From a virus: a stretch of 53,351 bases of DNA. The stretch is from the UHGV virus genome UHGV-0304279. One strand, 5' to 3'. Each line of letters begins with the position of its first letter. Within the stretch, counting starts at the first letter, position 1. Positions 6,398 through 10,988 of this stretch are shown here, one piece after another. Made by a program: the position numbers and the translations under genes. The notes beneath the pieces were generated by a model, which made no database searches, was not told where the DNA came from, and worked only from the letters and a program-made list of their open reading frames with translations.

Positions 6398-6996
6398 TGG
6401 CTACTTTTGGCGCTTATTTACGCCTAGATAATGGCAATATTTTTGTAACGCCGGATTCTACCCCGATGTGCTTATATTCGCGGGTGGCATTAAATTCCAG
6501 CCAACAACAAACGATCGCTGTACCCAACGGTAAGCCTGTAATGGTATTCATCAAAAACACCGACGACACCGCTACTGGGCTTGCCTATCGCGCATCATCA
6601 TCTACGGTAGTGATCCCGCCTGGCAACGGGTATGCGTATATATTCAGCATCTTCCCGCCATCGCTGCCGAAATGGGGGATGGCTATCTGGAACGCTTCCG
6701 GGGAACTGGTACTGACCAACGAATCAAAAATATTAACCGACCTTGTTACAGTAGGCACGGCGGGATCGAGCGGGGGGATTTATATCGATCAAACATTATC
6801 AGGATCTTATGCGGTAGTGCCTCAGATATTGGGGGCCGCTGTAGGTATGGGTTCCGCAACAATATATACAGAATCATACTACAACGGCAGCAATACACGA
6901 ATTCGCGGGAAGATGGTTGGTAGCTTGCAACAGATTTACGGTTACATTAATCACGGGAACGCTATCACCGCCATTAAAACCGACGCCTATGATTAA
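6397..6996 (+). CDS. hypothetical protein, MATFG paralogue 2
   Basis: Start overlaps the stop of the previous gene (TAATG); N-terminal paralogy; glycine/serine-rich. Confidence 0.5.
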   Translation: MATFGAYLRLDNGNIFVTPDSTPMCLYSRVALNSSQQQTIAVPNGKPVMVFIKNTDDTATGLAYRASSSTVVIPPGNGYAYIFSIFPPSLPKWGMAIWNASGELVLTNESKILTDLVTVGTAGSSGGIYIDQTLSGSYAVVPQILGAAVGMGSATIYTESYYNGSNTRIRGKMVGSLQQIYGYINHGNAITAIKTDAYD

Positions 6997-7232
6997 TTCA
7001 GTTCCGGGCAATCCGTTTTCTTGAAGTGGTCAACGCTTACCCATTGGAAGTTAAACGGATACCCGGCCTTAACCATTTTATGACCGCCAACATCCGCGAC
7101 ACCGAAGACTGCAACCGCATATTCATTACCTCCAGCCTGATAAGTTGCCGTGCATTCACGTTTCGGCATATCAGCGCAACCAACCATACCAGCGACCATT
7201 GCAGCTATAGCGATATTTTTAAAGCCTTTCAT
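6993..7232 (-). CDS. small lipoprotein (moron), candidate superinfection-exclusion factor
   Basis: Minus-strand ORF inside the tail operon; signal peptide with lipobox-like VGC (MKGFKNIAIAAMVAGMVGCAD); RBS GGAGG upstream. Confidence 0.5.
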   Translation of the reverse strand: MKGFKNIAIAAMVAGMVGCADMPKRECTATYQAGGNEYAVAVFGVADVGGHKMVKAGYPFNFQWVSVDHFKKTDCPELN

Positions 7233-7307
7233 TGTCTTATCCTCCATTGTTCCGTCGGTTGTAGTATCCATAAACATCGTTTTCTCAACATTGATATAAA
7301 TCAATAA

Positions 7308-7362
7308 ATACATTTTGTATAAGCCAGAAATGTAACGCAGATCACAAAATGGTAAAATTACC
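7308..7362 (+). promoter_or_regulatory. restart promoter-like region upstream of the tail fibre gene
   Basis: Contains ATACATTTTGTATA and GATCACAAAATGG motif copies plus extended -10-like TGgTAAAAT at 7350-7358. Confidence 0.4.
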
Positions 7363-7391
7363 AGGTTAATTAACATAATGGAGTCATTGCG

Positions 7392-9170
7392 ATGATTTAC
7401 ACAACAGGCACGATAGCCGTTAGCGGAAACACAGTTACCGGAAAGGGGACTGAATTCAACGCCGCATTATCTCTGATCAGAGTTGGTTGCACTCTTATTG
7501 CCATTAGCGATCCGGTGCAAATTTTTTCAATCACAGAGGTAAAAAGCGCAACAAGTTTGTCGGTAACTCCGGCGGCAAGCCCGTCTATTCCGGCTGGGAC
7601 TAAATTTAGCATCCTGCTTTCAGATTCGATCTCTGTGGATGGTCTTGCTCAGGATGTCGCCGAAACACTACGTTACTATCAGGGCAAGGAATCAGAAATA
7701 GCTGACGCCGTAGAATTTTTTAGCGACAACAAGGATGTAATTTCAGCCTCAAAATTAGCGTCAGAATCGGCTACCACTGCAACTAACGCAGCAACAACAG
7801 CGACAACCGCCGCCAATTCAGCAAAGACATACAGAGACGAGGCCCACGAATACGCCAATCAGACGGCGCAGCCTTACGCGTATGTTTTGCAGCCGCTGCC
7901 GGACGTATGGATACCGTTTAATGATTCACTTGATATGCTCACTGGCTACGGCCCTGGCACTAAAAAAGTAACCATTGATGGTGAAGAAAAAACAATATCA
8001 TCAGATAAGGTTGTTTCTTTCTCACGCGCAAGCACTGCGACCTATATCAATAAATCCGGTGTACTCACCACTGCTGATATTGACGAGCCACGTTTCGAAC
8101 GCGAAGGATTATTAATCGAAGGTACGCGCACGAATTACCTGCGCAATTCTAACAATCCAGCATCGTGGCCTATTCATAGCCAATTAACTAAAGAAACGGG
8201 CGCAGACGAAAACGGGTTTAACTATGCGACAGTAACAGTAAGCGACGATCTTGTAGGGACGACAGGCGGTTACACTGTGCATGGCGTAGTTACAGCTGAT
8301 AGATTTGCATTAGCCGCTGGCGAGAGCCTCACACTTTCCGCTCTTTGCCGTGGTACTAATGCACGCTGCCGGGCGCGTATATCAATTATTGTTGATGGAA
8401 CTGATACATTTTCTGCTGACTCTTATTTAAATTTAAATACAGGTGAAGCGTTAGTGTCTGGTGATACTACGCTAATCACTACGAAATCAGAGCAACGTGG
8501 CGATTGGTATTACTTTGAAACAACATACACAGCAAAGGTTGATATAGATGCTGTTAATTGTTCTTTTTATATATCTAACCTGGTAAATGATAGCTTTTAT
8601 TCCGATTCTTCTATGGCATTAGCAACTCCGCAAATCGAGTTAGGTTCTTGCGCATCATCGTTTATTGTATCAGGTGACACTCCAACCACACGAGCAAGCG
8701 ACATGGTAAGCATACCTACTAAGAATAACCTGTTTAAGCCACCATTCAGTTTTTTACTTGAATTACACAAGGAATGGACAACAGCACCAAACGCAGCGCC
8801 TAGAGTATTTGACATTGCAAACGCAAACACAGGGCAAAGTGTTATAGCTGCTATTAACAGAGGTAGCAGTAAATTTTACGTTTCCTTGTCTAACAGTTCT
8901 GGTACTTACATCAATTCTGCCGCTGATTCCGTATTGCCAAGTAAAGCCATTGTTGGTGCGGTAGTTAAAGGTGATGATACTTTTCACGCGATCATGGATG
9001 GTGTGGCGGTTGCAGATACAACATGTTCCTACGGTGGAGTAACTCAAGACAAAAACATCAGATTCGGCGGCCAGGTAGCAGACGGAGCGCGTCACTTGTT
9101 CGGACATATAAGAAATTTTCGTATCTGGCACAAAGCATTAACTGATTCTCAATTAAGCGAAATTGTTTAA
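7392..9170 (+). CDS. side tail fibre protein with C-terminal lectin-like (LamG/ConA-like) domain
   Basis: 592 aa; Ala/Thr-rich fibre-like segment (SESATTATNAATTATTAANSAKTY); C-terminal domain resembles a concanavalin-like lectin fold. Confidence 0.7.
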   Translation: MIYTTGTIAVSGNTVTGKGTEFNAALSLIRVGCTLIAISDPVQIFSITEVKSATSLSVTPAASPSIPAGTKFSILLSDSISVDGLAQDVAETLRYYQGKESEIADAVEFFSDNKDVISASKLASESATTATNAATTATTAANSAKTYRDEAHEYANQTAQPYAYVLQPLPDVWIPFNDSLDMLTGYGPGTKKVTIDGEEKTISSDKVVSFSRASTATYINKSGVLTTADIDEPRFEREGLLIEGTRTNYLRNSNNPASWPIHSQLTKETGADENGFNYATVTVSDDLVGTTGGYTVHGVVTADRFALAAGESLTLSALCRGTNARCRARISIIVDGTDTFSADSYLNLNTGEALVSGDTTLITTKSEQRGDWYYFETTYTAKVDIDAVNCSFYISNLVNDSFYSDSSMALATPQIELGSCASSFIVSGDTPTTRASDMVSIPTKNNLFKPPFSFLLELHKEWTTAPNAAPRVFDIANANTGQSVIAAINRGSSKFYVSLSNSSGTYINSAADSVLPSKAIVGAVVKGDDTFHAIMDGVAVADTTCSYGGVTQDKNIRFGGQVADGARHLFGHIRNFRIWHKALTDSQLSEIV

Positions 9171-9180
9171 GGTGGTTAGC

Positions 9181-9447
9181 ATGAAAGACGTTAGCTTGCA
9201 ATTTACTGATAAACAGCAATACAACGACATTGTGATTAACAGCGGCTGGCTGGACGAAAATCAGCAAACCGTGTTTATTGATGATATTGGTTTTGTTCTT
9301 GTATTCGATGATCCAGAAAGCGAGACGCCTGTACTGATTGAGAAAAAAGGCTATTACGTCAACATGCGCATTACTGGTGACGATATTGATTTGTCGCCGC
9401 TGGAAAAATTCACCATTCCAGATCCCGGCGTCCGCGCATGGGCTTGA
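9181..9447 (+). CDS. hypothetical protein (possible fibre-associated)
   Basis: ORF coupled to the tail fibre gene; start and function uncertain. Confidence 0.35.
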   Translation: MKDVSLQFTDKQQYNDIVINSGWLDENQQTVFIDDIGFVLVFDDPESETPVLIEKKGYYVNMRITGDDIDLSPLEKFTIPDPGVRAWA

Positions 9448-9490
9448 TGGTGCAATAGTAACAGCATGGTGATGTTAAAGACATCGCCGC

Positions 9491-9520
9491 GAAACGAGGC
9501 TAACGCCTCGTTTCTTTTTG
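9491..9520 (+). terminator. rho-independent terminator ending the tail operon
   Basis: Hairpin GAAACGAGGC-taac-GCCTCGTTTC followed by TTTTTG. Confidence 0.7.
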
Positions 9521-9781
9521 TGTACCAAATAGTGACCAAATATCAAAAACCAAAATCAAAAACAACATAACATTCTGTTTTATAAATGATTATTCGTTAC
9601 GCTAACCATTCCAGACAGGACCAGTGCGCTCTGTTTAAAGGTGTTTAACTCCGTTCAATCACGTCAATAAAATCACTTAAAAATCATACAGTTGCAACCA
9701 AAACCAGGCATCACGTTTCTAATTCAGTACAATACTGTTAATATCCGTACAACAAAAACTGTGTACCAAAACGTGACCAAA
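9519..9781 (+). other. putative attP region flanked by direct repeats (candidate integrase arm-type sites)
   Basis: TGTGTACCAAATAGTGACCAAA at 9519-9540 and TGTGTACCAAAACGTGACCAAA at 9760-9781 bracket an AT-rich stretch immediately upstream of int. Confidence 0.4.
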
Positions 9782-9797
9782 AATGGGGGGGTGCAAC

Positions 9798-10988
9798 ATG
9801 CTTACGGACACCAGGTTAAGGACCATCGCCAACAAGCCATACGACGGCCCAGGCGAGATAGCTGATCGTGATGGCCTGTCAGCCAGGATAAGCCCAAAAG
9901 GGAAAATTACTTTCCAGTACCGTTACAGATTCAACGGTAAGCCAGTGCGAATGAAGATCGGCGAGTACGGGAAAATGAGTCTGAAAGACGCCCGCTACGC
10001 GGTGGCTGAATACAGGGAGTTGCTTACGAAAGGGAAGAATCCGGCACTGTGCGTAAAGCAGGCCATAGCCTTTGAGCAGGGCAAGCGATCTATATCCGAC
10101 GTAGTGGAAGACTATCTATCCCTGCCGAACGTCATTAAGCTGGTGGCATATAAAGAAGTCAAAAGCGCATTGATGCGCCACGTAGTCAACAAGTACGGCG
10201 ACTACATAGCTGACGACGTAACGACAAAACAGTGGATGGATATATTTGGCGAGATCACGAAGGCGGGGCACGCCGTTACGGCAGGTTTGATATTGAAGCG
10301 AATGAAAATCATCGTTAACAGCGCAATCAGGCGCGGGATAATGACTAACACAGCGATAAACAATATCCGTGTAGCTGACGTTGGCGAGCATTATGCTGTG
10401 GGTGAACGTTACCTATCATGCGAGGAAATAGGCCACTTCTGGCGTACTGTAGACAGTTCGCAGATCTATCCGCAGAACAAAATAGCCTTAAAGCTATTGT
10501 TGCTCACCGGGTGCAGGGTGGGAGAATTACAGAAAATGAGAAGGGAACACCTGGACCTGGACAACGGTGTGTGGACCGTTCCGGCGGCGGTGGCGAAGAC
10601 AAGAAGTGAAATCAGGCGGGGATTATCTGACTTGTCGATAAAAATGCTCAGGGAGGTGTTAGCCTCCCATGAGTATGATTATGTGTTCCCGCCAGTGATT
10701 AACGGCGGCAACAGGCCAGTAAACGCATCGGTGATAAAGGTTGCTGCAATCTTCGTGCGTAAAAGGATGGGCGGTAAATCATGGTCCTGTCACGACCTCC
10801 GCAGGACGTGCCGGACACACCTTTCGGCTATAGGTGTCCCAGTACATATTGCAGAAAAGATCTTAGGCCATTCATTAAGGGGAATACTGGCGGTGTACGA
10901 CAAATACGATTATCTTGACGAACAAAAGGAGGCACTAAATAAGTTTGCTGATTATGTATTATCTTTAGCTGACGTTAAACCAATCTGA
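9798..10988 (+). CDS. int: tyrosine integrase (P4-like)
   Basis: Catalytic motifs TGCRVGEL (Arg), HDLRRT (His-x-x-Arg), LGHS (His), AVYDKY (Tyr); N-terminal arm-binding-like domain; RBS GGGGG before ATG 9798. Confidence 0.9.
   Translation: MLTDTRLRTIANKPYDGPGEIADRDGLSARISPKGKITFQYRYRFNGKPVRMKIGEYGKMSLKDARYAVAEYRELLTKGKNPALCVKQAIAFEQGKRSISDVVEDYLSLPNVIKLVAYKEVKSALMRHVVNKYGDYIADDVTTKQWMDIFGEITKAGHAVTAGLILKRMKIIVNSAIRRGIMTNTAINNIRVADVGEHYAVGERYLSCEEIGHFWRTVDSSQIYPQNKIALKLLLLTGCRVGELQKMRREHLDLDNGVWTVPAAVAKTRSEIRRGLSDLSIKMLREVLASHEYDYVFPPVINGGNRPVNASVIKVAAIFVRKRMGGKSWSCHDLRRTCRTHLSAIGVPVHIAEKILGHSLRGILAVYDKYDYLDEQKEALNKFADYVLSLADVKPI

Follow-up and report, generated by a model that had tools for sequence, protein, structure and literature searches.

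A probable attP of an mEp021-like coliphage with a 12-bp core identical to dgcM between paired putative integrase arm sites

The DNA analysed here, a stretch of 53,351 nucleotides from virus genome UHGV-0304279 that we call the window, carries an intergenic region between its tail-fibre genes and the gene int for a tyrosine integrase, in which the features of Table 1 are arranged. Upstream of this region lie a tail-fibre-like gene (7392-9170) and then a small ORF (9181-9447; phrog_1361, function unknown). The region opens with an intrinsic terminator, which forms the left boundary of the proposed attP and within whose T-run the distal of two direct repeats begins; the terminator is kept in all relatives aligned, and is annotated as a terminator in the records of mEp010 and mEp554. 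An Rfam scan of 9300-9950 with E-values up to 1 gave zero matches to RNA elements. Farther upstream, among the tail genes, the translation of a small ORF on the minus strand (6993-7376) carries a lipoprotein-like signal (…AAMVAGMVGC…), and this ORF sits where MagusPhagus has an annotated "lipoprotein" and where the Lpp superinfection-exclusion proteins of mEpimmI phages are encoded.

The integrase (Int) is matched by two Pfam families, Arm-DNA-bind_3 with an E-value of 1e-19 (70.8 bits, cut-off 27) and Phage_integrase with an E-value of 5e-21, and its N-terminal domain matches PDB entry 3jtz, the solved N-domain of a CP4-like integrase (E 3e-8). A run of G residues at 9785-9791 constitutes the ribosome-binding site of int. 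The first ATG of the open reading frame, at 9783, was rejected as the int start because the length of the G-run varies in close relatives, shifting the frame, and the conserved start is ATG 9798. The run itself counts 7 G in the window and 5-7 G in near-identical relatives, and may be a slippage-prone tract or a homopolymer sequencing error. At the other end of the gene, the window's int stops at a TGA (10986-10988) where relatives read CGA (KPI* versus KPIRSKNCITS*), leaving the window's Int 8 residues shorter than close relatives at 98% identity, with the catalytic region intact. The convergent gene that overlaps this 3' end encodes a small helix-turn-helix (HTH) protein matched by Pfam HTH_23, by phrog_4745 (DNA binding protein) and, below the cut-off, by Xis_Gifsy_1 (E 0.06); searches against Pfam, PHROGs, NCBIfam and PDB sequences returned generic HTH families and this sub-threshold Xis_Gifsy_1 match only. 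Position and the Xis_Gifsy_1 match make the HTH protein a candidate excision factor.

Table 1. Features in and around the proposed attP (positions in the window; Int, integrase; RDF, recombination directionality factor or excisionase).
Feature	Position	Strand	Remarks
Intrinsic terminator	9491-9519	+	10-bp stem GAAACGAGGC/GCCTCGTTTC, then T-run; ends the tail-fibre operon
Distal (P-arm, tail-side) putative arm-type Int site pair	9519-9540	+	GTGTACCAAA at 9520-9529, GTGACCAAA at 9532-9540
Common core TCCAGACAGGAC	9610-9621		Only sequence identical in attP and attB
Three GTTYAA boxes	9633-9658 (starts 9633, 9643, 9653)	+	Exact 10-bp phase; 12 bp right of the core
Promoter-like TTAACT-17-TAAAAT	9645-9673	+	9/12 matches; candidate int promoter
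IHF-like site AATCATACAGTTG	9682-9694	+	1 mismatch to WATCAANNNNTTR; weak; partly conserved in type Ib
Extended -10-like TGtTAATAT	9736-9744	+	15 nt upstream of the proximal repeat; candidate int promoter
Proximal (P'-arm, int-side) putative arm-type Int site pair	9760-9781	+	GTGTACCAAA at 9761-9770, GTGACCAAA at 9773-9781
int, tyrosine integrase, 396 aa	9798-10988	+	Arm-DNA-bind_3 residues 2-84, Phage_integrase 207-367 (Pfam)
Small helix-turn-helix protein, 76 aa	10952-11182	-	Convergent, overlaps the int 3' end; candidate RDF

The preliminary description of this DNA had pointed to two near-identical 22-bp repeats, bracketing about 220 bp of AT-rich DNA just upstream of the integrase start, as a candidate attP. 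The repeats are indeed present, agreeing at 20 of 22 positions with two differing central bases, and the 219 bp between them contain 33% G+C, compared with 46% in the whole window. The right-hand repeat ends 16 nt 5' of ATG 9798 and 1 nt before ATG 9783. A repeat search extended the two copies to 9519-9543 (TGTGTACCAAATAGTGACCAAATAT) and 9760-9784 (TGTGTACCAAAACGTGACCAAAAAT), which are direct repeats with 22 of 25 positions in agreement and 241 bp from start to start. Within each 22-bp repeat a finer structure can be recognized, namely a tandem pair of half-sites, GTGTACCAAA followed by GTGACCAAA, spaced 11-12 bp apart. With up to 3 mismatches allowed, the pattern TGTGTACCAAANNGTGACCAAA occurs exactly twice on both strands of the window (0.02 occurrences expected), a count that was reached in none of 100 shuffles; similarly, the best match between 25-mers in 200 shuffles of the intergenic DNA (9448-9797) never exceeded 20 positions, compared with the 22 observed.

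That a crossover core lies between the repeats, as had been suggested, is confirmed by the junctions of E. coli prophages. A megablast search of complete E. coli genomes with region 9100-10100 as the query found no genome carrying this region uninterrupted. Instead, 10 E. coli genomes among the matches listed align with it in two places each, one match covering the window up to 9621 and the other covering it from 9610. A further 12 records among the matches listed align with the tail-side arm only, and 10 of these 12 stop at the same boundary. The matches at the junctions have a DNA identity of ~90-96%; the prophages supplying the junctions are 96% identical to the window and distinct from its own phage. 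On the int side the junction adjoins dgcM (strain LP-26-E1-261) and on the tail side it adjoins ynaN and zntB (strain FAH); in K-12, dgcM and ynaN/zntB are neighbors with nothing in between. Both junctions are found in one chromosome in strain FAH, ~54.7 kb apart, and the longest string common to the two is the 12-mer TCCAGACAGGAC. In the lysogens the distal half-site pair goes with the tail|ynaN junction, and the proximal pair goes with the dgcM|int junction.

Four-way alignment of attP, attB (from K-12), attL and attR revealed a single common block, TCCAGACAGGAC, which occurs once in the window, and each junction is an exact attP x attB recombinant. The comparison with host genomes that the preliminary description had proposed, in search of an identical core of 10-30 bp within 9541-9759, accordingly yields a 12-bp match, 9610-9621, which is dgcM sequence. 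These data show recombination of the 12-bp core with its identical counterpart in dgcM by the P4-type integrase encoded at 9798-10988, leaving the prophage flanked by the 12-mer, and strand exchange must take place inside 9610-9621. A tRNA gene was discarded as integration target, since the window lacks a tRNA and attB lies inside the dgcM coding sequence; a tRNA search of the whole window was empty, returning neither a gene nor a fragment, and the target being other than a tRNA fits the earlier reading, in which no tRNA fragment had been recognized.

The attB site corresponds approximately to codons 13-17 of dgcM (…TSPVWIV…). On the dgcM side of the lysogen, the arriving phage arm brings stop codons and no in-frame start, and dgcM therefore loses its first 14 codons together with its promoter. 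The RefSeq DgcM proteins have 393 amino acids in lysogens versus 410 in K-12. In the RefSeq annotation the truncated dgcM of the lysogens LP-26-E1-261 (L001:1820-3001) and FAH (L076:6471-7652) is labeled as a normal 393-residue "diguanylate cyclase DgcM", which hides the gene disruption; by the LP-26-E1-261 coordinates, translation would begin at a non-canonical ATC that coincides with the phage junction.

Comparison of the window with mEp021, mEp515, mEp010 and MagusPhagus gave 83-88% DNA identity over 29-57% of its first 25 kb, and its Int is 90% identical to that of mEp021 and 98% identical to that of the prophage inserted in dgcM of LP-26-E1-261. Judged by these similarities, the window is an mEp021-like (mEpimmI) phage with an integrase of type Ia, directed to the 5' end of ydaM/dgcM. 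The mEpimmI group has been defined with four integrase types (Front Microbiol 2025, PMC11893012), of which types Ia and Ib direct integration to the 5' region of ydaM (= dgcM), type II to abgT, at its 3' end, and type III to mppA; for mEp021 the insertion at the ydaM 5' end was validated by PCR, and the lysogens FAH, PAR, MS21-1, Ecol_244, KKa019 and M1/5 were assigned to integrase type Ia (PMC11893012). All six are among the junction matches found here, and the insertion point of types Ia and Ib in the ydaM/dgcM 5' end is the same as that of the window. Since the dgcM insertion site is thus already published for the group, the added value of the present analysis is the anatomy of the attP: in the text of PMC11893012 the term "attP" occurs 0 times, "repeat" is used only of protein J, and no arm repeats are described. 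Searched for in the literature, the motif GTGTACCAA, which the half-sites of the window share with those of relatives, turned up in unrelated primer sequences only.

In GenBank, the mEp phage genomes have been linearized exactly at the left edge of the core. In mEp021, a type Ib phage, the attP has 9 bp (TCCAGACAG) in common with attB, compared with 12 bp in the window (type Ia). This 3-bp difference runs in the opposite direction to the published wording, by which type Ib has the 3 extra base pairs (PMC11893012). If types Ia and Ib use the same overlap region, this region lies within 9610-9618, and strand exchange would then probably occur within TCCAGACAG, the part of the core that is common also to type Ib phages.

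With the core in place, the four half-sites are disposed as two tandem pairs, 69 bp to its left and 138 bp to its right, and they differ from the core in sequence. We aligned the attP of the window with those of two type Ib and four type II phages, and found a small number of invariant or nearly invariant blocks, namely the terminator, the left repeat, a few bases of the core, the -10-like element and the right repeat. The remainder of the attP diverges strongly between integrase types, and type II phages have another core (CCATTCAAAAGATAAG) and another host target. The half-sites are nearly invariant in both arms of types Ia, Ib and II, with one differing base in the distal pair of mEp021; type I phages have their pairs 241 bp apart, and type II phages 231 bp. 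Two further candidate sites within the attP were rejected. A search for additional half-sites, which also covered inverted copies at the start of int of the kind present in P4, yielded just a degenerate GCAACCAAA at 9694-9702, which is not conserved in type Ib, and a second direct repeat, AACCAAAATCA/AACCAAAACCA (at 9548 and 9696), lacks conservation in type Ib.

The conservation of Int follows a corresponding pattern, the Arm-DNA-bind_3 N-domain being the best conserved part of the protein. Between types I and II, Int identity is 73% over residues 1-70, 33% over residues 71-200 and 54% over residues 201-396. More generally, residues 1-70 are 66-73% identical in relatives keeping GTGTACCAA pairs, and the rest of the protein is 28-46% identical. 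Relatives whose Int is 41-47% identical overall retain both an N-domain with 66-71% identity and the GTGTACCAA tandem pairs, one pair located just 5' of int and the second ~220-235 bp further up where the attP is intact. In two groups with an N-domain (residues 1-70) of 54-59% identity the pairs read GTGTACATA, and similar tandem pairs are found upstream of integrases of 35-47% identity, including those of HK544 and Stx2 phage 1717.

Two observations on distant loci may be recorded alongside these. In the relatives with 41-47% Int identity (L032, L036, L059, L064 and L072), a central block, TTTGTATGTGATCTTnCGTGTAAG, recurs between the arm pairs at ~190-165 nt upstream of int; it is probably a common core for some host target. 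A very distant integrase locus (23% identity; L075:1180-1500) has an exact direct repeat of 50 bp, 282 bp apart, upstream of int.

Conserved pairs together with a conserved Arm-DNA-bind_3 N-domain in Int indicate that the repeats are most likely arm-type integrase sites. The suggestion to this effect in the preliminary description thus gains support from comparative sequence evidence of three kinds, the conserved repeats around a diverged interior, the arm-binding N-domain of Int and the layout of P4 (see below). We consider it highly probable that the stretch 9519-9781 makes up the whole attP of a temperate coliphage of the mEp021-like (mEpimmI) kind, with the dgcM core in its interior and the repeats as the arm-site pairs of Int. 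In the mechanism that we propose, the N-terminal Arm-DNA-bind_3 domain of Int would bind both tandem pairs while its C-terminal domains hold the core, so that the ~260 bp of AT-rich DNA would fold up as an intasome, in the manner of lambda and P4.

An alternative that we regard as quite unlikely accepts the attP and its core at 9610-9621 and has the 22-bp repeats bound by the HTH protein or another regulator, with the arm sites of Int located elsewhere, for example at the GTTYAA boxes. Homologues of the HTH protein (45-51% identity) are found with int in distant loci as far as an Int identity of 41%, and in the group with 34-35% Int identity (L068, L069 and L074) none was matched; such co-occurrence cannot assign motifs to proteins, and the proximal pair is well positioned as an operator. 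However, the repeats are symmetric on both arms, like the annotated arm repeats of P4, whereas the GTTYAA boxes are confined to the int-proximal arm, an asymmetry that a directionality factor would be expected to show. Moreover, the Int N-domain is conserved at 66-73%, whereas comparing types I and II gives only 45% identity for the HTH protein despite identical repeats. Even less probable, in our estimate, is that the repeats serve transcription alone, as an operator or promoter element of int with a copy of it after the terminator of the late operon, and have no role in recombination. The location of the proximal copy, abutting the ribosome-binding site of int, and of the distal copy directly after the terminator would suit such signals, but transcription has no need of a second copy beyond the core at a conserved distance of 231-241 bp, and each of the intact attP regions examined, HK544 and P4-like layouts among them, has the two-sided arrangement. 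Finally, a functionless chance or relic duplication, such as a target-site duplication around a small inserted element, is extremely improbable, for direct repeats around an AT-rich segment look insertion-like only superficially, and although one lineage (L027 and L062) lacks the segment exactly between the repeats, the repeats match far above chance and are nearly invariant around 219-231 bp that differ strongly between integrase types and contain an experimentally supported crossover core.

The lineage just mentioned consists of two type-II-like IMG/VR contigs, 3300045988_076816 (L027:1170-1520) and 3300045988_064823 (L062:1170-1520), which are 99.8% identical and carry a single copy of the 22-bp repeat. 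Here the terminator is followed by one repeat and then by the ATG of int, and the 231 bp holding the core, promoter and phased boxes are precisely missing. Either the direct repeats recombined with each other and attP was deleted, or the assembly collapsed at this point.

Returning to the attP with its putative arm pairs, the int-proximal arm contains further sequence elements that may participate in recombination. Three GTTYAA boxes are observed where 0.087 are expected, and none of 2000 shuffles reached three. Phased counterparts exist in type Ib and, as boxes of GTTTCA type, in distant relatives, and the boxes occur in the int-proximal arm only. They are likely the seat of the HTH protein in its putative role as excision factor. 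A second, looser cluster of GTTYAA-like boxes is seen at approximately 9713-9752, where it overlaps the -10-like element. Scanning the attP for the consensus of IHF gave the one weak site with 1 mismatch that is listed in Table 1, and no clear consensus site.

The same arm would also have to supply the promoter of int. In a lysogen, 176 bp of phage DNA (9622-9797) precede int, beyond which lies dgcM in antisense orientation; because only this much phage DNA is available, the int promoter must lie in the int-proximal arm. A promoter scan of the region gave a density of hits not above the shuffle background. Amid diverged sequence the -10-like element is kept, reading TGTTAATAT in type Ib and TG(T/A)TACTAT in type II. 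The three different candidate int promoters, two of which are listed in Table 1, all have the proximal pair between themselves and the int start codon, and with the promoter located within this arm every int transcript would start at or cross the proximal pair. Since this pair lies 16-38 nt before the start codon, bound Int should repress its own gene, and on this argument the int-proximal pair probably also functions in repression of int. A precedent exists in KplE1, where IntS and TorI repress intS, and a similar situation has been reported for P4 (PMC2951348).

The practical significance of these findings is threefold. Exact coordinates for the core, the arms, int and the likely excision factor can be used in annotation and in the construction of dgcM-targeting integration vectors. 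Lysogeny by a common group of gut coliphages truncates a diguanylate cyclase that controls curli expression, and the biofilm behavior of lysogens may change as a result. The GTGTACCAA tandem pair can serve as a practical signature of attP arms next to integrases of this Arm-DNA-bind_3 clade, Stx-converting phages included. Nothing in these findings alters how site-specific recombination is currently understood.

A wider reading, which we put forward as speculation and hold to be unlikely in its entirety, would combine integration and excision at dgcM as a reversible switch ("active lysogeny") with a portable module of GTGTACCAA arms and N-domain and with the occasional loss of attP. If it were true, lysogens would be curli-off through the DgcM-MlrA-CsgD pathway (curli, biofilm), and precise excision would restore an intact dgcM; the arm/N-domain module, joined to different core-binding and catalytic domains, would retarget phages, for example to dgcM, abgT and mppA within the group and to other sites in HK544 and the Stx phages; and recombination between the direct repeats would occasionally delete the attP, as in the two contigs with a single repeat copy.

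Comparison with characterized integration systems places the proposed attP among known designs. The lambda attP, with the arm sites P1, P2 and P'1-P'3 and with IHF, Xis and Fis, follows the same principle, in that a heterobivalent integrase connects arm-type with core-type sites across ~240 bp of AT-rich DNA, and between lambda and HK022 arm recognition is conserved and core specificity changed. The N-domain of lambda Int, however, belongs to another Pfam family than that of the window, and the lambda int gene is transcribed towards attP, with the Xis sites in the int-distal arm, whereas the int of the window runs away from the core. In this last respect the window resembles KplE1 (CPS-53), in which attL overlaps the intS promoter and int is likewise transcribed away from the core; in both, int is not co-transcribed with the RDF gene, which in the window is a candidate. 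KplE1 differs in being located next to a tRNA gene, argW, and its sites have been mapped experimentally, whereas those of the window are read from sequence. The IntS of Sf6 is 23% identical to the Int of the window.

Closer to the window is HK544, whose Int is 35% identical and falls in the same clade. Here (L078:260-570) GTGTACCAA tandem pairs flank the attP core annotated by the depositors and abut the int start, with a core that differs from that of the window (13 bp, NC_019767.1 21144-21156). The Stx2-converting phage 1717 has GTGTACCAA pairs in its int-proximal arm (L079:820-880), and their occurrence in both phages indicates that the motif marks a wide clade of enterobacterial phage integrases. 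Unlike the window, HK544 and Stx2 phage 1717 ("type 2851" attP) have a third half-site before int and a lambdoid backbone.

The closest parallel in layout is the satellite phage P4 (X51522.1), whose Int likewise has an arm-binding N-domain and in whose record four "attP arm sequence repeats" are annotated, grouped in two tandem 12-bp pairs with the core between them. The repeat sequence (GGGGGCAT) is unrelated to that of the window, the two integrases are 23% identical, and P4 has an extra inverted arm copy over the int start of which none is seen in the window. The target of P4 is the 3' end of a tRNA-Leu gene, in contrast to the 5' coding region of a protein gene that is targeted by the phage of the window. 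Followed in the direction of int, however, the order of elements is the same in both, with a tandem pair of 11-12-bp arm repeats, a short arm, the core, a long arm, a pair in the same orientation and, after ~15 nt, the start of int. In P4 a 20-bp core lies 53 bp from the first pair and 112 bp from the second, which ends 15 bp before int; in the window the core has 12 bp, and the corresponding distances are 69, 138 and 16 bp.
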